DNA from: Acidobacteriota bacterium
Lineage (GTDB): Bacteria > Acidobacteriota > Vicinamibacteria > Vicinamibacterales > SCN-69-37
DNA length: 64,000 nt
Direction: 5' to 3'
Assembly: GCA_020853395.1 (NCBI GenBank)
Contig: JADYYY010000010.1
Span: forward strand, 516,075 to 580,074
The notes under the pieces were generated by a model. The model ran no database searches. It was not told the DNA's origin and saw only the letters and a list, made by a program, of their open reading frames with translations. The translations under genes were made by a program, and so were the position numbers. Below are positions 50,052 through 63,532 of the stretch, piece by piece. How positions within the stretch are numbered: position 1 is the first letter of the stretch; every line of letters starts with the position of its first letter.

Positions 50052-50426
50052 CTACTTCTTCGGGCGCTTGGCGCCGTATTTCGACCGCCCCTGCATGCGA
50101 CCCGCCACGCCCACCGCGTCGAGCGTGCCGCGCACGACGTGGTAGCGCACGCCCGGCAAATCCTTCACGCGGCCGCCCCGAATCAGGACCAGAGAGTGCT
50201 CCTGGAGGTTGTGGCCGACGCCGGGAATGTAGGTCGTCACCTCGATGCCGTTCGTCAGCCTCACACGCGCGACCTTGCGCAGCGCCGAGTTCGGCTTCTT
50301 CGGCGTCTGCGTGAAGACGCGCACGCAGACGCCGCGCTTCTGCGGACTGCTCTGCAGCGCCGGGCTCTTCGTCTTGCTCAGCACCTTCTCGCGCCCTTGG
50401 CGGACCAGTTGGCTAATCGTCGGCAC
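50052..50426 (-). CDS. rpsL: 30S ribosomal protein S12
   Basis: The GTG at 50426 (GGAG 6 nt upstream) gives (M)[14 protein letters not shown]...[19 protein letters not shown]. The ATG at 50453 in the track adds 9 atypical residues. Confidence 0.94.
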
Positions 50427-50665
50427 TAGACACTCCACCCCGAAATGGGCCACCCACGCGCCGCCCGCGGCGCGCTTCCTTCGTCCCCGGCCTAAGAGGC
50501 ACCCCTCGGCGCCCGGGACTCTCCCCTATTGCTGCGAGTCAGCATGGCAGCGAGCCGTGCGACACCATCGGCGTCGCGTCGCTGCGCGGAAACAACCAGG
50601 AAGCTGAAGCGCTTCGACTGGAGCGAGCCTAGATAGGGTGTCCCAGGCTCGAAAATAACCTTGCG

Positions 50666-50694
50666 AGATTAGCACGGTGGTTCCGGCGCGTCAA
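50666..50694 (-). promoter_or_regulatory. Candidate sigma70-type promoter of the rpsL (str) operon
   Basis: The minus strand reads TTGACG (50694-50689), 17-nt spacer, TAATCT (50671-50666). This implies a leader of about 230 nt before the rpsL GTG. Confidence 0.45.
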
Positions 50695-50700
50695 GGAACC

Positions 50701-50728
50701 GGCGGCCGAGTCTTTGCTCCCGGCCGCC
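50701..50728 (-). terminator. GC hairpin just downstream of the last tandem paralog (possible terminator, no clear U-tract)
   Basis: GGCGGCCG (50701-50708) pairs with CGGCCGCC (50721-50728) around a 12-nt loop. It starts about 19 nt after the stop at 50747 and abuts the -35 of the rpsL promoter candidate. Confidence 0.35.
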
Positions 50729-50746
50729 TGACTCGCCCCGCCGCAA

Positions 50747-51982
50747 TCAGCGCGACCGCTCGTTGAGGCTGAAATACGAGGTGATCCGCCCGGCGGTCGC
50801 GTCGCGCACGAACGCCTTGATGGGGTCGAGCGCGCTCGCGCGCCCATCGGGGCCGAGCATCTCCCCGGCATAACCGAACCTCGCCGACACCGATCGGATG
50901 AACGTGCTCGACTCGTCGAGCGGCAGCGACGCGACGTTGTGCGCGAAATCGTCGAACAGGCCGTCCTGGAAGAGGTACTGCTCGACGTTGGAGACGTAGA
51001 AGGCCGACACCGTCGCGCCACGCTGGCGGAGGTACCGCCCGACGCCGCGCAGCGCCTTCGGCCCGGCGAAGTTGCCGACGACCGGCACGACCAGGTTCCG
51101 CTCCTGAAGGCCCCTGAGGAACCGGTAGTTCGCCTCGGAGGCGAGGTAGCTGCGCGGGCGCCCCTCCCAATCGGTCACGACCATCAGATCCTGATAGGTC
51201 GGGAAGTTGCCCGGCCCGCCGCGTCCGCGCCAGCCGAACGACGGCCCGGTGGAGTACCGCAGGCCGGGACCGTCCCAGAAGAACGCGAAGTAGATCGACT
51301 CGAGCTGATCGAGGTCCGTCGCCGACAGCGGCAAGCCGTGCTTCCTGAGCAGCACGTCGCGGATCCGCCGCGCGTTCTGGCGATAGAGGTCCTCGCTCGT
51401 CGCCACCGGCGCGAACGCGGCGAACAGCGCGTCGACGCTGGCCGACGCGGCGATACCCGGCGGCCGGGGCTTCGAGAAGAGCAGCGCCAGGAAGTCCGCG
51501 CGATCGGCGGACAGCTCGATGATGGCCTTGTACATCAGGTGCTCGAGCAGGTTGCCCCGCCGGATGTCCACGATGAAGGCCATGCGCGGCTCAGTCGCCA
51601 CGATGTAGGTGAAGTTCTGATCCGGAGCCACGCCCAGATAGACGCCGCCGCGCGGCACCAGCCGCTGGAGCGCCGGGATGACGTACTGATACGTGTGCTC
51701 GTTGGAGACGAGGTTCTCGGAGCGGAAGAAGCCGTTCGGCTCCGACAGCTCCGTCGACAACGTCCAGAACTGTTGATCGGTGAGCCGCGCCGGGAGGCGC
51801 GAGCGGGCCTCGGCGCGCGTCGCCTGCTGGACGGCCGGCGCATCCGCGCGCGCGATCCGCGTCCGGTCACCGACGCCGGACCGGTGTGCCCCGGCAGTGC
51901 CGGCCAGGCCGGCGAGCGCGGCGACGAGGACCGCGATCGGCCGCCACCACCTGACCACGAGCCGACGCGGTTCCCTCGGCAT
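50747..51982 (-). CDS. Tandem paralog E (fifth in transcription order) of an uncharacterised exported-protein family
   Basis: ATG at 51982, 3 nt after the paralog D stop. Signal-like N-terminus RWWRPIAVLVAALAGLAGTAGA. Family motifs LTDQQFW, SEPNGFFRSENLVSNE, VYLGVAPDQNFTYI, AFIVDIRRGNLLEHLMYKAIIELS, SYLASEANYRFL, NLVVPVVGNFAGPKALRGVG, AFYVSNVEQYL, SSTFIRS. C-terminus ...AGRITSY. Confidence 0.85.
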   Translation of the reverse strand: MPREPRRLVVRWWRPIAVLVAALAGLAGTAGAHRSGVGDRTRIARADAPAVQQATRAEARSRLPARLTDQQFWTLSTELSEPNGFFRSENLVSNEHTYQYVIPALQRLVPRGGVYLGVAPDQNFTYIVATEPRMAFIVDIRRGNLLEHLMYKAIIELSADRADFLALLFSKPRPPGIAASASVDALFAAFAPVATSEDLYRQNARRIRDVLLRKHGLPLSATDLDQLESIYFAFFWDGPGLRYSTGPSFGWRGRGGPGNFPTYQDLMVVTDWEGRPRSYLASEANYRFLRGLQERNLVVPVVGNFAGPKALRGVGRYLRQRGATVSAFYVSNVEQYLFQDGLFDDFAHNVASLPLDESSTFIRSVSARFGYAGEMLGPDGRASALDPIKAFVRDATAGRITSYFSLNERSR

Positions 51983-51985
51983 CGA

Positions 51986-53086
51986 CTACCGCACGGCGCC
52001 GCGGCTCGTCACGTCGGAATACACCGTGATGCGGCCGGCCTCGACCTGCTGCAGCAGATCCCGAATCGGGTCCATGACGTTGCGCTGCAGCGCCGACCGG
52101 ATGATCACGCTGCGCTCGTCGATGGGCAGCGCCCCCAGGTTCGCATAGAACAGCTCGGCGACGGCGTTGCGGAACAGGTACTGCTCCACGTTCGAGGTGT
52201 AGAACGCCGAGACCACCGCACCGCGGGCCGAGAGATAGGCCCCGATGGCCCGCAACGCCTTGGGGCCGGCGAAGTCGCCCACGACGGGGACGAGCAGATT
52301 CCGCGTCTGGAACGCCCGGAGCCACTGGTAGTTCGTCTCGGTCGCGAGGTACGAATGGCGCTCGCCGTTGAGATCGGTCGACGTCAGCATGTCGGCGTAC
52401 TCGGGCATGTTGCGCATCGCGAACCCGCCCATCGAGTACGTCAACGACGGGCCGTGCTCGAAGAACATCCGGTAAATGGTCGTGAGACCGCCGACGTCGG
52501 CCTCCGACAGGTCGAAGCCGTGCGTCTCGATCAGGTGCGCCAGGATCTGCTGCAGGTTCGCCGCGTACAGCTCCTCGCTCGGCACCGCCGGACGGTAGGC
52601 GTCCACCAACGCAACCACGGGCGTGCGGTCGTCGAGCCCGTCCGGCCGTGCTCTCGAGAACAGCCGCGACAGGGACTCCGCGCGGCTGGCCGACAGCTCG
52701 ATGATGGCCTTGTACATCAGGTGCTCGAGCAGGTTGCCGCGGCGGATGTCGACGATGAACGCGAGGCGCGGCTCGAGCGCAACGATGTAGGTGAAGTTCT
52801 GATCCGGCGCGACGCCGAGGTACACCCCCTGCCGTGGCATCGCGCGCAACGCAGGCACGACGTGCTGCAGCGCACGCTCGTTGCCGACGAGGTTCTCCGA
52901 CTGGAAATAGCCACCCGGCTCCGAGAGCTCGTCGACGAGCGCCCAGTACTCCTTGTCGCTGAGCGACTCGGGCAGGGCCTTGTTCTGGACGGCGCCCGAC
53001 GCCGGCAGCCACACCACCGAGGCCGCCAGCACCACCGCGACGGCCAGCCCGCGGCGACGACGATCCATGCGCACGGCGCGAATCAT
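51986..53086 (-). CDS. Tandem paralog D of the same family
   Basis: ATG at 53086. N-terminus DRRRRGLAVAVVLAASVVWLPASGA. Motifs SEPGGYFQSENLVGNE, VYLGVAPDQNFTYI, AFIVDIRRGNLLEHLMYKAIIELS, SYLATETNYQWL, NLLVPVVGDFAGPKALRAIG, AFYTSNVEQYL. C-terminus ...AGRITVY. Confidence 0.85.
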   Translation of the reverse strand: MIRAVRMDRRRRGLAVAVVLAASVVWLPASGAVQNKALPESLSDKEYWALVDELSEPGGYFQSENLVGNERALQHVVPALRAMPRQGVYLGVAPDQNFTYIVALEPRLAFIVDIRRGNLLEHLMYKAIIELSASRAESLSRLFSRARPDGLDDRTPVVALVDAYRPAVPSEELYAANLQQILAHLIETHGFDLSEADVGGLTTIYRMFFEHGPSLTYSMGGFAMRNMPEYADMLTSTDLNGERHSYLATETNYQWLRAFQTRNLLVPVVGDFAGPKALRAIGAYLSARGAVVSAFYTSNVEQYLFRNAVAELFYANLGALPIDERSVIIRSALQRNVMDPIRDLLQQVEAGRITVYSDVTSRGAVR

Positions 53087-53089
53087 CGC

Positions 53090-54202
53090 CTAACGTCCAT
53101 GACCGTGCGCGAGCACGTCCCGATACGACCGGACGCGGCCGGCGCTCAGGTCCGCGATCAGCCCCGGCATCGAGTCCAAGAGCGAGACGGCGCGCGATCC
53201 GCCGAACGAGGAGCAACTGTCGAAGCACGATCGGATGAACGTGCTGTGCGGCGCAAGCGGCATCGCCGCCACGTTGTTCATGAACGTCGTCCACGTGCCG
53301 TCCTGGAACAGATAGCGCTCGACGTTCGACGTGTAGAAGACGCTCACCACCCCTCCGTGACCGGCGACGTAGGCGCCAATCGCCCGCAACGCTTTCGGAC
53401 CGCCGAAGTTCCCGACGATCGGCACGATCGCGTTCCTCTGCTGGAGGTCCCTGAGCCGCTGGAACCGTTGCTCGTCGGCGAGATAGCCGCGCTGCTGGCC
53501 CGCCGCATCCGTCGCCACCTGGATCTCAGCGAACGTCGGATACCAGTTTCCGGACCGGCTGCTGACGAACCGGAGCTCCGGGCCAGCGGCAACGAACTGC
53601 TCGTAGACATGTCGAATCTCCGGCAGATCGTCCGCGTCGAGTGCAAACCCGTGGCCCTGCGTCAGGTTCTGCGCCACGGCCGCCATCGTTGCCTCGACGT
53701 ACTCGCGGTCGGGGCGCGCCTCGCCATAGGCACGCATCAACGACTCTACCGTGGAGCCGGGCCCCACGCCCGCCGGCACGCGCCTGCCGAACAGCCGCGA
53801 CAGGAACTCCGCGCGCGACGCGGACTGCTCGATGAGCGACTTGTAGAGCAGGTGGAGATGCAGGTTGCCACGCCGCACGTCCGTGATGAACGCCAGCGCC
53901 GGCCTGACCGCGATGATGTACGAGAAGTTCTGCTCGGGACCGACGCCGAGGTAGACGCCGCCGGGAGGAATCGTCTGGACGAGCTCGGGGATGACGGTCT
54001 GAAAGGTGTCCTCGTTCGACAGGAGGTTGTCGGAGTCGAAGTAGCCGTTGGGCTCGGAGAAGTCGGCGACCAGCCGCCAGAACTCCGAATCCGCCAGACG
54101 ATCGGGGAGCGTGGAGGGCGCTGCACGGGTGCCGAGCGACACCGACATCGACGCCGCACACAGCGCCAGCACGACACCGAGCAGCCACCGGCGTCTCGTC
54201 AT
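53090..54202 (-). CDS. Tandem paralog C of the same family
   Basis: ATG at 54202. N-terminus MTRRRWLLGVVLALCAASMSVSLG. Motifs SEPNGYFDSDNLLSNE, VYLGVGPEQNFSYI, AFITDVRRGNLHLHLLYKSL, GYLADEQRFQRL, NAIVPIVGNFGGPKALRAIG, VFYTSNVERYL, HSTFIRS. C-terminus ...AGRVRSY. Confidence 0.85.
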   Translation of the reverse strand: MTRRRWLLGVVLALCAASMSVSLGTRAAPSTLPDRLADSEFWRLVADFSEPNGYFDSDNLLSNEDTFQTVIPELVQTIPPGGVYLGVGPEQNFSYIIAVRPALAFITDVRRGNLHLHLLYKSLIEQSASRAEFLSRLFGRRVPAGVGPGSTVESLMRAYGEARPDREYVEATMAAVAQNLTQGHGFALDADDLPEIRHVYEQFVAAGPELRFVSSRSGNWYPTFAEIQVATDAAGQQRGYLADEQRFQRLRDLQQRNAIVPIVGNFGGPKALRAIGAYVAGHGGVVSVFYTSNVERYLFQDGTWTTFMNNVAAMPLAPHSTFIRSCFDSCSSFGGSRAVSLLDSMPGLIADLSAGRVRSYRDVLAHGHGR

Positions 54203-54214
54203 TGCCCGGCGCCC

Positions 54215-55387
54215 TCAGCGTGACGGCACGGCACATCCATGCGTCTCGGCCTGGATCCCCGCGAGCGACGACGTGAACATCGCGCCGCCGCGGCCACCGC
54301 CACCACGCACCGTCCGGACGAACGTGCTCGACGCCGTCGTCGGCATTGCCGCGACGTTGGCGCAGAACGCCGTCCACTTCCCGTCCTGCCGGAGGTACTG
54401 CTCCACGTTGGACAGGTAGAACGCGTCCACCGTGGCGCCGTGCTGGCGCGCGTACTGCCCCACGGAGCGCAACGCTTTGGACCCGGCGAAATCGCCCACG
54501 ACCGGCACGATGAGGTTGCGCATCTGGAGATCCTTCACGAAGGCGAAGTTCGCCTCGGTCGCGAGGTAGCTGCGCTGCTCACCGGCGCCGTCGTCCATGG
54601 CCATGAGATCGGCGTAGGTGGGCGTGCCCATTCCTCGTCCGCCGAATCCGCGCGGCCCCTGGCCCGTCAGGCGGTAATTCAGATCCGGACCGTCCGCGAA
54701 GAAGGCGGTCCGATAGACGTACTCGATGCCGGCGCGATCCTCGGCCGTCAAGGGCAGCCGCCGGCCCGTGGCGAGCCGTTCGAGCACATCGTTCAGCGTC
54801 CGGCGATACCGCGTTTCGCTGGCCGGCACGCCCTCGATCGCCGCGAACAGCGCTTCGACGCTCGCTCCTCGCGGCAGCGACGGCCGCTCACGCGAGAACA
54901 GCCGCGCCAGGAAGTCCGCGCGGTCGGCCGACAGCTCCATGAGCGCCTTGTACAGCAGATGCTCCTGCAGGTTGCCGCGGCGGATGTCCACGATGAACGC
55001 CATCCGGGGCCGCACGGCCGCGATGTACGTGAAGTTCTGCTCCGGGCCGACGCCGACGTAGAAGCCGCCCGGCTTCACCCGGCGAAGCAGGTCGGGAATG
55101 ACCGTCTGGAAGCGGCCCTCGTTCGACACGAAGTTGTCGGAGTGGAACGTCCCGCCTGGCTCGGAGAACGACGAGGACAAGGTCCAGAACTGCTGATCGG
55201 TCAGGTGCTCCGGCAGCTCCGCCGCCGTTGCAGCGATGCCAGCTCGGCCCAACATGGCCGGCCGCGCGGCCACCGCCCCGCCGATGGCGCAGAGCAGGAT
55301 CGCGGCGAACCACAGGCGGCGAAGGCGCCGGCGATCGTCAGACAGCCGGCGGCGCCCCACGACCATCAGTCCTGCGAACCGCCACAT
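54215..55387 (-). CDS. Tandem paralog B of the same family
   Basis: ATG at 55387 (the alternative ATG at 55366 gives a TGATG junction with paralog A). N-terminus RRLRRLWFAAILLCAIGGAVAARPA. Motifs LTDQQFW, SEPGGTFHSDNFVSNE, FYVGVGPEQNFTYI, AFIVDIRRGNLQEHLLYKAL, SYLATEANFAFV, NLIVPVVGDFAGSKALRSVG, AFYLSNVEQYL. Gly-rich tail GGGGRGG...AETHGC. The 703-aa track ORF is a run-on into paralog A out of frame. Confidence 0.85.
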   Translation of the reverse strand: MWRFAGLMVVGRRRLSDDRRRLRRLWFAAILLCAIGGAVAARPAMLGRAGIAATAAELPEHLTDQQFWTLSSSFSEPGGTFHSDNFVSNEGRFQTVIPDLLRRVKPGGFYVGVGPEQNFTYIAAVRPRMAFIVDIRRGNLQEHLLYKALMELSADRADFLARLFSRERPSLPRGASVEALFAAIEGVPASETRYRRTLNDVLERLATGRRLPLTAEDRAGIEYVYRTAFFADGPDLNYRLTGQGPRGFGGRGMGTPTYADLMAMDDGAGEQRSYLATEANFAFVKDLQMRNLIVPVVGDFAGSKALRSVGQYARQHGATVDAFYLSNVEQYLRQDGKWTAFCANVAAMPTTASSTFVRTVRGGGGRGGAMFTSSLAGIQAETHGCAVPSR

Positions 55388-56451
55388 ACGCGCGTTTCGG
55401 CCGCCATCGATCCCAGCCGGTTGGTCAACCCGCCGCCCCAGCCGAATCCGCCGCCGCCCGACCGGATGAACGTGCTCGACTCGTCGAGCGGCATCGTCGC
55501 CACGTTCGCGCAGAAGGTGCTCCAGATGCCGTCCTGGTTCAAGTACTGCTCGACGTTGGACAGGTAGAACGCCCCCACGACGGCGCCGTGTTCGCGAACG
55601 TACGCGCCGACGGCTCGCAGCGCTTTCGGCCCGCCGAAATTGCCGACGATCGGCACGACCAGGTTCCGCGCTTCGAGCGCGCGAAGGAAGGCGAAGGCTT
55701 CCTCGGACGCCAGATAGCTCGTCGCGGCGCCGGCATTGTCGGTCACGGTCATCAGCGCCGCGTACGTCGACATGCTGCTGCGGTTGCCGCCGCCGCTCGA
55801 CGAGTTGTAGGTGATCGAGGGGCCGAACCAGTAGAAGTTGCGATAGACGTACTCGATGCCGTCGAGATCCTCGGCCGAGAGCGGGAACCGGTGCGGCGAC
55901 TTCGTGAGATGGTTCCTGATGGCCTCGAGGTTCTCGCGATAGACCTCCTCGCCCGAGGTGGCCACTTCGGCGAACCGGCGCACGATCTCGGACACCGGCG
56001 CATCGTCGGCGAGCCCGTCGGGCCGCGGCTTCGTGAAGAGACGCGCGTAGAAGTCCGCGCGCGTCGTCGACATCTCGACGAGCGCCTTGTACATCAACTG
56101 GGTGTGGAGGTTGCCCCTCCGCACGTCGGTGATGAACGCCATCTTCGGCTTCAGCGCGACGATGTAGTTGAAGTTCTGCTCGGGGCCGACGCCGAGGTAG
56201 ACCGCGCCAGGCTTCACCCGCTGCAGAAGATCTGGGAGCACCGCCGGGTAGTAGATCTCGTTCGACAGCAGGTTGTCGGACCGGAAGTAGCCGTTCGGCT
56301 CCGACATCTGCTGCGAGAGCGTCCACAACTCCTGATCGGTGAGCCGCTCAGGGAGCGTGTCGGGCGCCGCACGCACCCGGACGGCCGCTGGTGCCAGCAC
56401 GACGAGCATGCACGCCGCAATGGCTGCGCCACGCACGCGGGTTGGAATCAT
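55366..56451 (-). CDS. Tandem paralog A (first in transcription order) of the same family
   Basis: ATG at 56451. N-terminus MIPTRVRGAAIAACMLVVLAPAAVRVRA. Motifs LTDQELW, SEPNGYFRSDNLLSNE, VYLGVGPEQNFNYI, AFITDVRRGNLHTQLMYKAL, SYLASEEAFAFL, NLVVPIVGNFGGPKALRAVG, AFYLSNVEQYL, SSTFIRS. Gly-rich tail GGGGFGWGGG...AETRVC. Confidence 0.85.
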   Translation of the reverse strand: MIPTRVRGAAIAACMLVVLAPAAVRVRAAPDTLPERLTDQELWTLSQQMSEPNGYFRSDNLLSNEIYYPAVLPDLLQRVKPGAVYLGVGPEQNFNYIVALKPKMAFITDVRRGNLHTQLMYKALVEMSTTRADFYARLFTKPRPDGLADDAPVSEIVRRFAEVATSGEEVYRENLEAIRNHLTKSPHRFPLSAEDLDGIEYVYRNFYWFGPSITYNSSSGGGNRSSMSTYAALMTVTDNAGAATSYLASEEAFAFLRALEARNLVVPIVGNFGGPKALRAVGAYVREHGAVVGAFYLSNVEQYLNQDGIWSTFCANVATMPLDESSTFIRSGGGGFGWGGGLTNRLGSMAAETRVCGGSQD

Positions 56452-56535
56452 AGGGAGTCTCGCGCTTCAGTCTACACCGGAGCCTCGAGCCGTGCGCGGC
56501 GCGCCGACGAGCAACGCGGTGGCGACCGGGCGCAC

Positions 56536-58977
56536 CTACCGGCCGAGCGTGCGACCGATCGTCCGCTGGATGCCGTCGCGAACCGCCTGGATCGACGCGG
56601 GCGATCCCTCGAACAGGTGCTCAGGATACTTGGCGTACTGGAGCATGTCGGCGTAGATCGGACCGCTCTGATAGAGGTTCAGCCCCATCCCGGCGAGATA
56701 CTGCAGCTTCAGGTTCCGGTCGCGATTGATCGCCGCGTCCTTGAGCCACGGCGCCAGGTCGCTGGCCGTGCCGGCGTAGTTCGAGAGCAGGTCCACGGCC
56801 GAGAAGATGCCGATCTCCGCCAGCGACTGCTTCACCTGCGCGAACTTCGGATCGTCGAGCCTGGCCTGCAGCTCGTCGACGTTGATCTTCGTCGGCTCGA
56901 CCTGGCCCATCAGCACGAGGTCGTAGCCCTGCCCGTTGTTCGTGTTCCCCCAGACGACGCCGTTGGGAAACGCCTCGAGGAAAGTGCCGATCTCGCTCTT
57001 CACCGCCGCGGGATTGCTCTCGTAGAGCTGCACGAACAGCGTCACGACGCCGCCGGGATTCAGATGCCGCTTCACGATCTCGAAGAACTCCCGCGTGTAG
57101 AGCGTCGCCGCCCCCTTCACCCACGGGTCGAGCGGGTCCGACGTGATCGCGTCGAACATCTGGTCGGTCGTCAGCAGGAAGTGGCGGGCATCGTCGATGT
57201 GGACCGTGACCTTGGGGTTGTCCACGACGTTGTAATTGTGCTCGCCGAAGTACTTCGAGACGGACGCCGGCACCAGCGGCTCGATCTCGGCGATCGTCAT
57301 GTGCTCGACGAGCGGGCCGATCGACACCGCGCCGGCCGTGACGCCGGCGCCGCAGCCGATGACGAGGGCGTTCTTCGGCGCCTTCGGAATCAGGTGCGTG
57401 AAGTGGCCGAGCATCCGCTGCAGCCGCATGTCCTGAGGCTCGCTCGAGGCCTGCACCTTGCCGGCGTTGTGGTAGTTGCGGACGCCGGTCGACGTCTGGG
57501 ACACGGCGACGAACGCATTCATCCCTTCGCCGACGTAGATGATGTCGGTGAGCCCGACCCAGGTCGCGGCGTAGCGGCCGTACGCGACGAGGATGCCGGG
57601 CACGTCCGGCATCGAACGCACGACGAGGCCGGCGGCACCGGTGGCGGCGACGAGCAGCACGGTCATCACCCATCGCTGCGTCCTCGACCCGACCTGCTCG
57701 GTAATCACGGGGGCGAGCAGCATCAGCCCGGACAGGGCCGAGACGATAATCAGGATCTGCTGGGCTTCGGGCGTGCCGAAGTAGACGACCATCACCAGCC
57801 CCGACACGAGCGATCCGACGATGGCCCCCACGGTATTGGCCGCGTACACGCCGCCGACGAGCCTGCCGGCATCCTGCCCAGGCGCGGCGACCGCAGCGAG
57901 CGCAAGCGGAAAGCTGGCGCCCCAGAGGATCGCGCCAGGCAGCACGACCCAGAGGCATCTCACCATGTCGAGCTGGAAGTTGAACCACGGGTCCGACGCA
58001 ATCGACGGATTGATGGGCCAATACGGCAGCGAGCGCATCAGCATGTATGCCGCCCAGCCCATGGCGCCGCAGAGCAGGAGCTGGCACCAGCCGAGCGCCG
58101 CGCGCGGCCGTGCCGTGCTGCGCGCGATCGCCGACCCCAGGCTGCTGCCGATGCCGAGGCCGAACAGGAACACGCCGAGAATCAGCGAGAAGGCATAGAC
58201 CGTCGCCCCGAACAGCAGCGACAGCAAGCGCGTCCACAGGACCTCGGACGCGAGCGCCGTCATGCCCGACAGCGCAATCGCCAGATAGACGACGCCCGAG
58301 CCTTCGGCCCGGACCACGCCGCCGGCCGGTTCCGGCTCGGGCTCGTGCGAGGTCACGCGCGTGATGGCGAGCGCCGCCACCGCCACCGCCACGTTGAGCG
58401 CCGCGGCGACGAACGTCGTGACGGCGCTGTCGTACACGCGCAGCAGATAGAAGCCGGCGCCGAGGCTGCCGAGCACGGCGCCCGCGATGTTGCCTCCGTA
58501 GAAGAACCCGAGCCAGGACACGCCTTCGGGCGTCGTTCGGACCCAGCGGGCGATGGCCGGCAGCGTCGCGCCCATCATCAGCGTCGGCGGCAGCAGGCAC
58601 AACGCGGCGACGATCGCGCGCACGGCCACGTGGCCGCCACCGATCGCCGCGTAGATGCCGTTGACGAGCGGCATGCCGAACAGCAGGAGCAATCCCATCG
58701 CGCCGATGCCGAGCTCGAGGTAGGCATAGACGCGAAGAGGATGGTGCCGCGGATCGATGTACCGAGGCAGGACGAAGCTGCCGAGGCACATGCCGCCCAT
58801 GAACGTCCCGAGCAGCACGCCCAGCGAGATCGCCGAGGACCCGATGACCAGCTGCAGGAGCTGGAACCAGACGATCTCGTAGATCAGGGCCGCGCACCCG
58901 CTGCCCACGAACAGCAGGAGAATCGCCGGGAAGTAGGGGTTGGCCGTGCTCAGGGGTGAGGCCGATCGGTCGTTCAT
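56536..58977 (-). CDS. Fused polytopic membrane (MFS-like) / spermidine-synthase-like (aminopropyltransferase fold) protein
   Basis: 813 aa. The N-terminal ~480 aa hold many hydrophobic helices (FPAILLLFVGSGCAALIYEIVWFQLL, GFFYGGNIAGAVLGSLGAGFYLL, LWTRLLSLLFGATVYAFSLILGVFLFGLGIG). The C-terminal domain has ALVIGCGAGVTAGA, MTIAEIEPLV, VHIDDARHFL, FDAITSDPLDPWVKGAATLYTREFF and LNPGGVV, the motif order of spermidine synthases. A helical tail follows. Confidence 0.85.
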   Translation of the reverse strand: MNDRSASPLSTANPYFPAILLLFVGSGCAALIYEIVWFQLLQLVIGSSAISLGVLLGTFMGGMCLGSFVLPRYIDPRHHPLRVYAYLELGIGAMGLLLLFGMPLVNGIYAAIGGGHVAVRAIVAALCLLPPTLMMGATLPAIARWVRTTPEGVSWLGFFYGGNIAGAVLGSLGAGFYLLRVYDSAVTTFVAAALNVAVAVAALAITRVTSHEPEPEPAGGVVRAEGSGVVYLAIALSGMTALASEVLWTRLLSLLFGATVYAFSLILGVFLFGLGIGSSLGSAIARSTARPRAALGWCQLLLCGAMGWAAYMLMRSLPYWPINPSIASDPWFNFQLDMVRCLWVVLPGAILWGASFPLALAAVAAPGQDAGRLVGGVYAANTVGAIVGSLVSGLVMVVYFGTPEAQQILIIVSALSGLMLLAPVITEQVGSRTQRWVMTVLLVAATGAAGLVVRSMPDVPGILVAYGRYAATWVGLTDIIYVGEGMNAFVAVSQTSTGVRNYHNAGKVQASSEPQDMRLQRMLGHFTHLIPKAPKNALVIGCGAGVTAGAVSIGPLVEHMTIAEIEPLVPASVSKYFGEHNYNVVDNPKVTVHIDDARHFLLTTDQMFDAITSDPLDPWVKGAATLYTREFFEIVKRHLNPGGVVTLFVQLYESNPAAVKSEIGTFLEAFPNGVVWGNTNNGQGYDLVLMGQVEPTKINVDELQARLDDPKFAQVKQSLAEIGIFSAVDLLSNYAGTASDLAPWLKDAAINRDRNLKLQYLAGMGLNLYQSGPIYADMLQYAKYPEHLFEGSPASIQAVRDGIQRTIGRTLGR

Positions 58978-59189
58978 AAGCTGGGGGATCCTATCTCAAA
59001 GCGACAGCGGCACGGGCCTTACTACGACAGGACGGGCGCTGGCGTTCACCGGGACCGGCGAACGGGCCGGCACCGCGTCTAGTCTACACAGCGAAGATGA
59101 CCGGATCGACGGCACGCGCGCGACCGCGCCGCGTCCTGAACACACGAACCAACGTTCGCCGCCGGTCGCAAGCGGCTCTGCTGTCCGCG

Positions 59190-59226
59190 CCAAACACAAC
59201 GGGCGCGCCGGTGTCCCGGCGCGCCC
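59190..59226 (-). terminator. Rho-independent-type terminator downstream of rpoC
   Basis: The minus-strand RNA has GGGCGCGCCGG-gaca-CCGGCGCGCCC (perfect 11-bp stem), followed by GUUGUGUUUGG, about 90 nt after the rpoC stop. Confidence 0.55.
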
Positions 59227-59314
59227 GTCGCTGACGCTCACTCGCGCGATCCGCCGATCCTCACTCGCCAGCGCAACCGGCCATCCTCGAATGGCCGATC
59301 GGTCCGGCGCGCCG

Positions 59315-63532
<4,218 letters not shown>

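Follow-up and report, generated by a model that had tools for sequence, protein, structure and literature searches.

The window analysed here, a stretch of 64,000 nucleotides from an Acidobacteriota bacterium, carries five similar genes in tandem behind a gene for a large membrane protein, and this locus raises the question of what the five encoded proteins are, in which compartment they act and whether their function is tied to the membrane-bound neighbor. The genes concerned are the following:

59315..63532, minus strand, rpoC, upstream boundary of the conserved cassette
56536..58977, minus strand, membrane protein gene, 813 aa, 13 predicted transmembrane helices and a C-terminal spermidine-synthase-like domain
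55366-56451, minus strand, paralog A, 361 aa, DUF7790 protein (PF25046, E 8e-28), tail class 1 (Gly-rich plus AETRVC), first-position orthogroup, two cysteines in the mature protein (in FCANV and at the C-terminus)
54215-55366, minus strand, paralog B, 383 aa from ATG, DUF7790 protein (PF25046, E 2e-34), tail class 1 (Gly-rich plus AETHGC)
53090-54202, minus strand, paralog C, 370 aa, DUF7790 protein (PF25046, E 1.5e-27), tail class 2 (AGRVRSY), conserved CFxxC pair
51986-53086, minus strand, paralog D, 366 aa, DUF7790 protein (PF25046, E 9e-30), tail class 2 (AGRITVY), no cysteine in the mature protein, sequence used for the AF2 model
50747-51982, minus strand, paralog E, 411 aa, DUF7790 protein (PF25046, E 1.4e-34), tail class 2 (AGRITSY), longer linker after the signal segment, last-position orthogroup
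50052..50453, minus strand, rpsL, downstream boundary of the cassette, with rpsG, fusA and rpsJ beyond it

The preliminary description of this DNA had proposed five tandem paralogs, and this was borne out by five minus-strand open reading frames at 50747-56451, all of which matched Pfam DUF7790 with E-values of ~1e-27 to 1e-35, a similarity that chance cannot account for. Paralogs B to E share 47-53% identity with paralog A, and a MAFFT alignment of the five contains ~95 invariant columns. Paralog B is 100% identical to the NCBI hypothetical protein IT184_11250 from an Acidobacteria MAG, for which NCBI calls a shorter version of 381 aa. Every motif of the ordered list drawn up earlier was found, with the correction that the pattern given for the first motif misses paralogs D (LPESLSD) and E (LPARLTD). 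The description was also right on the arginine runs, on FCANVA, on AET..C at the ends of A and B and on AGR(I/V)..Y at the ends of C, D and E, and the two C-terminal classes are kept in other genomes too. The intergenic distances across the array are -1, 12, 3 and 3 nt, the ATG of paralog B and the TGA of paralog A sharing one base, and due to this tight spacing (-1 to 12 nt) the array resembles a single operon. On sequence grounds, the array and the upstream gene for the 13-helix membrane protein form one predicted operon. A scan for promoters and terminators yielded nothing informative. Long antisense reading frames across the array (e.g. 50939-54223, plus strand) were dismissed as high-GC artefacts.

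The five proteins had also been taken to define a family of their own. This view had to be given up, because the family is already catalogued as PF25046 and has a solved structure, 6ULO. All five paralogs matched PF25046 with 97-120 bits against a gathering threshold of 23, and all 124 aligned homologs matched it as well. DUF7790 is thus a catalogued, uncharacterised family, and the array does not represent a new one. The family is sizeable, comprising ~4,200 clusters when grouped at 50% identity (E up to 1e-3), and occurs mostly in soil Acidobacteriota and Gemmatimonadota. The family profile detected 6ULO, an uncharacterised protein from Leptospira interrogans, with an E-value of 6e-17, and in a Foldseek comparison the AF2 model matched it with E 8e-13 and TM-scores of 0.61 (query) and 0.69-0.71 (target). 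Common to 6ULO and the paralogs are YxGVGxEQN, an Asp after strand 2, PxxG(N/D) and YxSNxExY; the Leptospira protein is only ~14% identical to the paralogs and has neither RRGN nor their C-terminal tails. A further distant homolog, likewise exported, is the LIC_10091/LipL40 family lipoprotein (NCBIfam NF047518), for which the paralogs scored 44-64 bits against a curated cutoff of 350, marking them as distant relatives and not as members. LipL40 is described as a putative lipoprotein, and the papers on it report in vitro plasminogen-binding or its use as a control, nothing further. Our literature search returned no paper on DUF7790, PF25046 or 6ULO, and a homolog search with a 6ULO fragment, aimed at the genomic contexts in Leptospira, gave no matches.

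What kind of domain is this? The AF2 model of paralog D (pLDDT 90.4, pTM 0.86) predicts a domain of ~330 residues in which two conserved alpha/beta halves surround a variable helical insert of ~130 residues. The elements follow the order b1-aA-b2-aB-(helical insert)-b3-aC-b4-aD-hairpin, with six strands, not seven. The GV(G/A)P loop lies after the strand formed by residues 88-91 and D113 closes the strand formed by residues 108-113, such that strand 1 leads into a glycine-rich loop and strand 2 ends in an acidic residue, as in class I methyltransferases. Among 53 array proteins, Y89, G91, V92, P94 and D113 are each conserved to at least 98%. Outside the family, the best-scoring Foldseek matches in PDB and BFVD were mostly class I methyltransferases, including Dam (prob 0.94) and NNMT (prob up to 0.96) in PDB and an N4-cytosine methyltransferase (E 2.7e-4) and D12 methyltransferases in BFVD. 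The probabilities of these matches were 0.8-0.98, but by TM-score (0.2-0.43) and E-value (3e-4 to 5e-2) the matches are weak. Dam, the D12-class N6-adenine methyltransferases and NNMT share with the paralogs the split architecture with a helical insert between the halves, the glycine-containing loop after strand 1 (GxGP in the paralogs, which we take to correspond to GSGP of NNMT) and the acidic residue ending strand 2. The paralogs have no DPPY/NPPY-type motif; SNVE holds that position. A Pfam scan with E-values up to 10 detected no methyltransferase profile in the 124 homologs or in cores from which the insert had been spliced out. The Rossmann/methyltransferase-like fold proposed earlier consequently stands in part: strand-helix order and Foldseek neighbors speak for it, whereas the TM-scores and the Pfam result speak against it, and we consider such a fold plausible, if weakly supported, on the basis of the model. 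The proposed specific kinship with the spermidine-synthase domain of the neighboring protein was not upheld, as the hhalign probability was 0.2% and none of the paralogs matched PF01564 (spermidine synthase). Resemblance between this domain and the paralogs exists only at the broadest level of the Rossmann methyltransferase superfold, with no detectable homology.

The same description had assigned export signals to the N-termini, and this assignment gained support from a segment conserved throughout the family, from cysteine statistics and from fusion partners. A hydrophobic N-terminal segment is present in 184 of 193 full-length homologs, and 187 of the 193 have a net-positive n-region ahead of it. 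Upon inspection all five paralogs displayed a positive n-region, a hydrophobic core and a small-x-small motif as is typical of Sec signals. Cleavage sites, like the topology of the neighboring protein, were assigned by manual rules, and the candidates found by eye in paralogs A to E are VRA|A, AVA|A, TRA|A, SGA|V and AGA|H, with VRA|AP as the probable site in paralog A. In the mature domains the number of cysteines is 0 or 2 for 52 of 53 array proteins and the cysteines form conserved pairs, while some homologs are fused to the extracytoplasmic domains CarboxypepD_reg, fn3 or DUF4850. None of the five paralogs has a lipobox cysteine where the hydrophobic segment ends (IAAC of paralog A marks the start, not the end, of the segment), and a lipobox-like motif occurs in only 16 of the 193 homologs. 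Paralog C carries the most Tat-like sequence of the five (TRRRWLL) and TRRAFLA of some homologs fits (S/T)RRxFLK; a loose twin-arginine pattern is found in only 56 of 193 homologs, and many have plain Sec-like signals. Export of DUF7790 proteins is a well supported prediction, and it sets them apart from Dam, D12 enzymes and NNMT, which are cytoplasmic. Alternatively, the proteins could be cytoplasmic SAM-dependent methyltransferases held on an N-terminal membrane anchor, in accordance with the resemblance to such enzymes at the level of the fold and with the availability of SAM in the cytoplasm only. We regard this as highly improbable, since the positive n-region before the hydrophobic segment predicts an N-in, C-out orientation and since the small-x-small motifs behind the segment in all five paralogs, the paired cysteines, the fusions to extracytoplasmic domains and the lipoprotein relatives also argue against it.

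Conservation differs between the parts of these proteins: it amounts to 0.69-0.81 for the N-motif and both halves of the core, and drops to 0.56 for the insert and 0.34 for the tails. All orthogroups agree at more than 50 positions, of which many are polar, and the invariant polar motifs of the site read SEPxGxFxSxNxxSNE, YxGVxPxQN, DxRRGN, GxF and YxSNVExYL. In a neighbor-joining tree, copies cluster by position in the array and not by genome, and a core trio of A-, C- and E-type proteins occurs in the same order in other genomes, with B- and D-types as additional members. Judged from the sequences, the paralogs are ancient, position-conserved and non-redundant orthogroups. The invariant polar site in all paralogs together with the varying insert and tails suggests enzymes or binders of one common ligand. 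Our preferred reading, in which we place about as much belief as doubt, is that the paralogs are exported, probably soluble periplasmic DUF7790 enzymes or binders of a common small ligand; if pressed further, our best guess is periplasmic small-molecule-binding enzymes. The ligand may be of a nucleoside/SAM-like or a polyamine-like type, and the variable insert and tails would provide each paralog with a separate target in the cell envelope. If SAM-like ligands are used outside the cytoplasm, this would be unexpected; if they are not, a methyltransferase fold would have been turned to a different use.

The arrangement of a membrane protein gene followed by an ordered array of genes for exported paralogs is also the typical layout of a binding-protein system. 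By analogy with multiple binding proteins serving one TRAP, TTT or ABC transporter, the DUF7790 proteins could be non-catalytic periplasmic ligand-binding or adaptor proteins ('pseudo-methyltransferases') that feed different substrates to the membrane protein, with specificity residing in the variable insert and tails, and such a role would suit a periplasm in which SAM is not expected. We nevertheless deem it unlikely, because more than 50 invariant positions are better suited to a catalytic or cofactor site common to all paralogs than to diversified ligand pockets, because many DUF7790 genes lie far from any transporter gene and because, to our knowledge, MFS-type transporters are not known to work with soluble binding proteins.

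The membrane protein itself bears on the place where periplasmic enzymes or binders would act. It matched NF037959, 'fused MFS/spermidine synthase', the name NCBI gives to an identical protein, with 115 bits (cutoff 40), and its AF2 model contains 13 long helices. Loops predicted to lie inside carry ~15 Lys and Arg residues compared with ~3 in those predicted outside, so that by the positive-inside rule the spermidine-synthase-like domain is predicted to be periplasmic. This domain matches SpeE structures (1UIR, E 8e-10). It differs from SpeE in having GCGAG for GGGEG and LQR for YHE, and its score of 72.5 with the SpeE equivalog TIGR00417 stays below the cutoff of 249.55. In SpeE, dcSAM is selected by the acidic residue of GGG(D/E)G. 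On our preferred reading, the DUF7790 proteins would act at the periplasmic face alongside this domain. A bolder version, which we consider decidedly improbable, unites the cassette into an extracytoplasmic alkyl-transfer system composed of an MFS-like exporter, a SpeE-like domain and periplasmic DUF7790 enzymes with a methyltransferase fold. The 13-helix MFS-like domain would export either SAM or dcSAM as a SAM-type donor, or else an amine acceptor, and deliver it to the periplasm-facing spermidine-synthase-like domain and the DUF7790 enzymes, each of which would modify a different envelope target. If true, this would mean SAM-type chemistry in the bacterial periplasm. Neither SAM nor dcSAM is known to be available there, and our literature search met neither the term 'periplasmic methyltransferase' nor useful information on spermidine synthases fused to membrane domains or on methyltransferases of the periplasm; this counts against our preferred reading as well.

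Whether the two gene types belong together at all was approached from both sides. Among DUF7790-anchored loci that contain the membrane protein, its gene lies directly upstream on the same strand in 24 out of 27. With the membrane protein as anchor, 62 metagenome loci were compared: a DUF7790 gene lies directly downstream in 7, upstream in 4 and is not adjacent in 51. An obligate partnership was rejected on the basis of this reverse test, as only 7 of 62 indicates that the association is non-obligatory. The DUF7790 proteins could thus be independent of their neighbor, stand-alone non-SAM enzymes of the periplasm such as hydrolases or transferases with substrates in the envelope or the environment, the adjacency being mostly synteny inherited in one acidobacterial lineage. 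The 51 loci just mentioned are in line with this, as is the finding that roughly two in three DUF7790 loci lack such a membrane protein within 10 kb and that solo copies adjoin unrelated housekeeping genes. The many invariant Ser, Asn, Glu, Arg and Lys residues, atypical for methyltransferases, and the lack of a sequence-profile link to these enzymes point in the same direction. Against independence stand the tight packing in one operon and the recurrence of the adjacency in at least three arrangements with membrane protein partners that are 55-78% identical, which by a rough estimate clearly exceeds the few percent that chance would produce. We judge independence possible, although rather unlikely.

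DUF7790 genes of Gemmatimonadota are mostly solitary and reside in unrelated contexts. Neighbors of solo DUF7790 genes, and those of further paralogs of the membrane protein, were identified by eye and revealed no common theme; topoisomerase I, an aldehyde dehydrogenase, TrmFO, a kinase, GlgC and an ABC ATPase are among them. For a sizeable family with a solved structure, export, the conserved polar site that the methyltransferase-like scaffold carries, the ancient ordered paralog arrays and the genomic context narrow the question of function and offer a concrete, testable point of departure. The rpoC-rpsL ribosomal-protein cluster is among the most conserved gene neighborhoods of bacteria, and it is inside this cluster that the cassette is wedged in one lineage: in Vicinamibacterales-like Acidobacteriota, the 13-helix membrane protein and then 3 to 10 DUF7790 genes are located between rpoC and rpsL.

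ORF calling placed five genes, A to E, one behind the other on the minus strand (50747-56451):

55366-56451, minus strand, paralog A, 361 aa
54215-55366, minus strand, paralog B, 383 aa
53090-54202, minus strand, paralog C, 370 aa
51986-53086, minus strand, paralog D, 366 aa
50747-51982, minus strand, paralog E, 411 aa

The stop codon of A and the start codon of B overlap by one base (TGATG) and the remaining gaps measure 12, 3 and 3 nt; packed this tightly, the five genes look like a single operon. In an alignment of the five proteins, B to E share 47-53% identity with A, and all five agree in about 95 columns. This confirmed the five paralogs reported in the preliminary description, the interpretation of which proved largely sound. 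All of its ordered motifs were found in the alignment, the first motif being the sole deviation (LPESLSD in D and LPARLTD in E). The description also holds for the arginine runs, the FCANVA sequence and the tails, with A and B ending in AET..C (class 1) and C, D and E in AGR(I/V)..Y (class 2). On the plus strand, antisense ORFs (50939-54223, 54239-55567 and 55228-58959), the longest of 1,243 aa, lie over the array and the neighboring gene SPD. They were rejected as genes and are high-GC artefacts, the high third-position GC belonging to the minus-strand genes.

The paralogs had also been said to define a family. This claim was not upheld, as Pfam PF25046 (DUF7790) matched all five proteins with scores of 97-120 bits (threshold 23), and a profile of 124 homologs matched one solved structure, 6ULO, an uncharacterized protein of Leptospira interrogans (E 6e-17). 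Since Pfam already lists the family as a DUF and one structure has been solved, the paralogs are members of it and do not constitute a new one. A word-sharing search returned more than 8,000 homologs, all with PF25046; clustering at 50% identity gave 4,169 clusters (E up to 1e-3) or 1,425 clusters (E up to 1e-30). A hypothetical protein from an Acidobacteria MAG matches paralog B with 100% identity. With NCBIfam NF047518, the LIC_10091 family lipoproteins, the five proteins scored 44-64 bits versus a cutoff of 350, which rules out membership and makes them distant relatives of this Leptospira subfamily. LIC10091 (LipL40) is a putative lipoprotein known only via in vitro plasminogen-binding screens (PMC2889836) and has been used as a non-binding control (PMC2935396). 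In our literature search, no paper was found that mentions DUF7790, PF25046 or 6ULO.

Export, predicted earlier from the N-termini, is well supported by sequence features across the family. A hydrophobic N-terminal segment is present in 184 of 193 full-length homologs and a net-positive n-region in 187, and inspection of the window proteins revealed a small-x-small motif directly behind the hydrophobic segment in all five. The Tat pathway would be a minority route at most, because no more than 56 of the 193 homologs conform to a twin-arginine pattern, even a loosely defined one, and ordinary Sec-type signals are common. Paired cysteines in the mature domain are what one would expect of extracytoplasmic proteins with disulfide bonds. 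In SPD-linked arrays, 52 of 53 proteins have exactly zero or two cysteines in this domain; the conserved pairs are FC.NV plus a C-terminal cysteine in class 1 and CxxxC in the C-type, with none in the D- and E-types. In longer homologs, a CarboxypepD_reg, fn3 or DUF4850 domain is found at the C-terminus. In three homologs (P0171, P0227 and P0263) we noticed C-terminal extensions of 350-400 aa without a Pfam match; by eye, one resembles a membrane domain, one Asp-rich calcium-binding repeats (DTDADG, DTDDDG) and one a helical TPR-like region.

To describe the fold we used an AF2 model of paralog D (pLDDT 90.4, pTM 0.86), which contains the following elements:

88-91, strand, followed by the GVAP loop
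94-104, helix
108-113, strand with Asp113 at its end
116-131, helix
about 135-261, all-helical insert
265-269, strand (VPVVG-D-F)
277-287, helix
292-298, strand (AFYTSNVE), followed by two helices
327-340, beta-hairpin

The top Foldseek match in the PDB was 6ULO (E 8e-13, TM 0.61-0.71). The other matches listed were mostly class I methyltransferases with TM-scores of only 0.23-0.43; matches included NNMT (prob up to 0.96) and E. coli Dam (E 6e-3, prob 0.94), whose split architecture resembles the DUF7790 core halves around the helical insert. BFVD independently agreed with this picture: an unnamed protein came first, followed by a Pandoravirus N4-cytosine methyltransferase (E 2.7e-4) and, lower down, D12-class adenine methyltransferases and cap methyltransferases. 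Pfam scans yielded zero methyltransferase families, both for the 124 homologs at E up to 10 and for DUF7790 cores with the insert spliced out. For the methyltransferase-like fold proposed earlier there is thus a weak structural resemblance that sequence profiles do not back. A core of class I methyltransferase type, split in the manner of Dam, is plausible, if weakly supported. The further suggestion, that the paralogs share their fold with the spermidine-synthase-like domain of SPD, gained no support from hhalign (probability 0.2%), and nothing points to a specific relationship with spermidine synthase. That the proteins are cytoplasmic methyltransferases tethered to the membrane is highly improbable, as both the signal features and the paired cysteines contradict it.

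When 53 array proteins, taken from 12 genomes, were placed in a neighbor-joining tree, the copies clustered by array position and not by genome. The A-type clade is always first in the array and the E-type clade last among class 2 copies, with extra class 1 copies behind it in some longer arrays; C-type, D-type and B-type form further clades. Arrays of three copies consist of one A-, one C- and one E-type gene. The paralogs are therefore ancient, ordered and presumably non-redundant, and the two C-terminal classes noted earlier represent conserved features of position-specific orthogroups. Conservation, as mean majority fraction, reaches 0.69-0.81 in the N-terminal motif and both halves of the core but drops to 0.56 in the helical insert and 0.34 in the tails, and more than 50 positions, many of them polar, are conserved at >=98%. 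This pattern suits a shared catalytic or ligand site combined with variable specificity elements.

The window comprises a ribosomal-protein gene cluster, canonical except for a non-ribosomal cassette (50453-59315) of SPD followed by the DUF7790 array, inserted between rpoC and rpsL-rpsG-fusA. The GC3 of the array genes is in line with that of their neighbors. Many MAGs of Vicinamibacterales and Acidobacteriota share this layout, the number of DUF7790 genes varying from 3 to about 10 (Vicinamibacterales-like loci L001, L004, L006, L016, L019, L020, L025, L030, L033, L034, L074 and L080). Several genomes have an opposite-strand gene, about 555 aa long, within the array or at its end ahead of rpsL; by eye it is alpha/beta-hydrolase- or esterase-like, and it is absent from the window (L004, between 12249 and 14127; L015, 9871-11538; L018; L019; L020; L030, 12428-14281).

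Among 79 DUF7790-anchored loci, 27 contain an SPD gene, which lies directly upstream on the same strand in 24. The pairing also occurs outside the ribosomal cluster, including DUF7790 followed by SPD and a pair with an SPD only 55% identical; a second such arrangement is SPD, one DUF7790 gene and a small ORF of 100 aa (L013, 12901-16675; L042, 12076-15943; L021, 4385-11158). By eye, this ORF resembles a stress-responsive alpha-beta barrel protein, and a gene resembling cystathionine beta-synthase is nearby in all three loci. In the reverse test, covering 62 SPD-anchored metagenome loci with enough downstream sequence, DUF7790 was directly downstream of SPD in only 7 and upstream in 4 more, ruling out an obligate partnership. 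Gemmatimonadota copies are mostly solitary in unrelated contexts. The association is enriched and recurrent, not obligatory. Independent periplasmic enzymes that are merely syntenic with SPD would be consistent with these counts, a reading we consider possible, if somewhat unlikely. Many SPD paralogs among loci L081-L160 (e.g. L087, L096, L098, L116 and L134) are without a DUF7790 partner, and in about 16 of these loci a gene of about 92 aa, SWIB/MDM2-domain-like by eye, directly precedes them.

SPD itself (56536-58977, minus strand, 813 aa) matched NF037959, 'fused MFS/spermidine synthase', with 115 bits against a cutoff of 40. Its AF2 model (pLDDT 81) has 13 long helices, not 12, followed by a domain that matches SpeE structures (1UIR, E 8e-10). 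Averaged over the family, the loops on one side of the membrane carry about 15 K+R and those on the other about 3; together with the 13 helices, the positive-inside rule predicts an N-in topology with a periplasmic SpeE-like domain. To our knowledge, dcSAM is not expected in the periplasm. The domain retains the D..DP motif but has GCGAG for GGGEG and LQR for YHE, and it does not reach the cutoffs of the SpeE equivalogs; a canonical aminopropyltransferase is therefore improbable.

The five proteins are exported DUF7790 members whose alpha/beta scaffold bears an invariant polar site, and their array shares an operon with the membrane SpeE-like protein SPD. We propose that they may act as periplasmic enzymes or as binders of one common small ligand, that the variable insert and tails would steer the paralogs to different envelope targets, and that at the window locus they could cooperate with the outward-facing SpeE-like domain. 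It is unlikely that they are non-catalytic binding or adaptor proteins serving SPD. SAM-type chemistry in the periplasm, of which we know no precedent, is still less probable. The location of the array is unusual, and the hypothesis is testable. The cultured Gemmatirosa kalamazoonensis, a possible experimental system, carries DUF7790 homologs of 40-47% identity on two megaplasmids (NZ_CP007130.1, 227093-227995; NZ_CP007129.1, 693748-694614), and one Streptomyces plasmid has a match with 28% identity.
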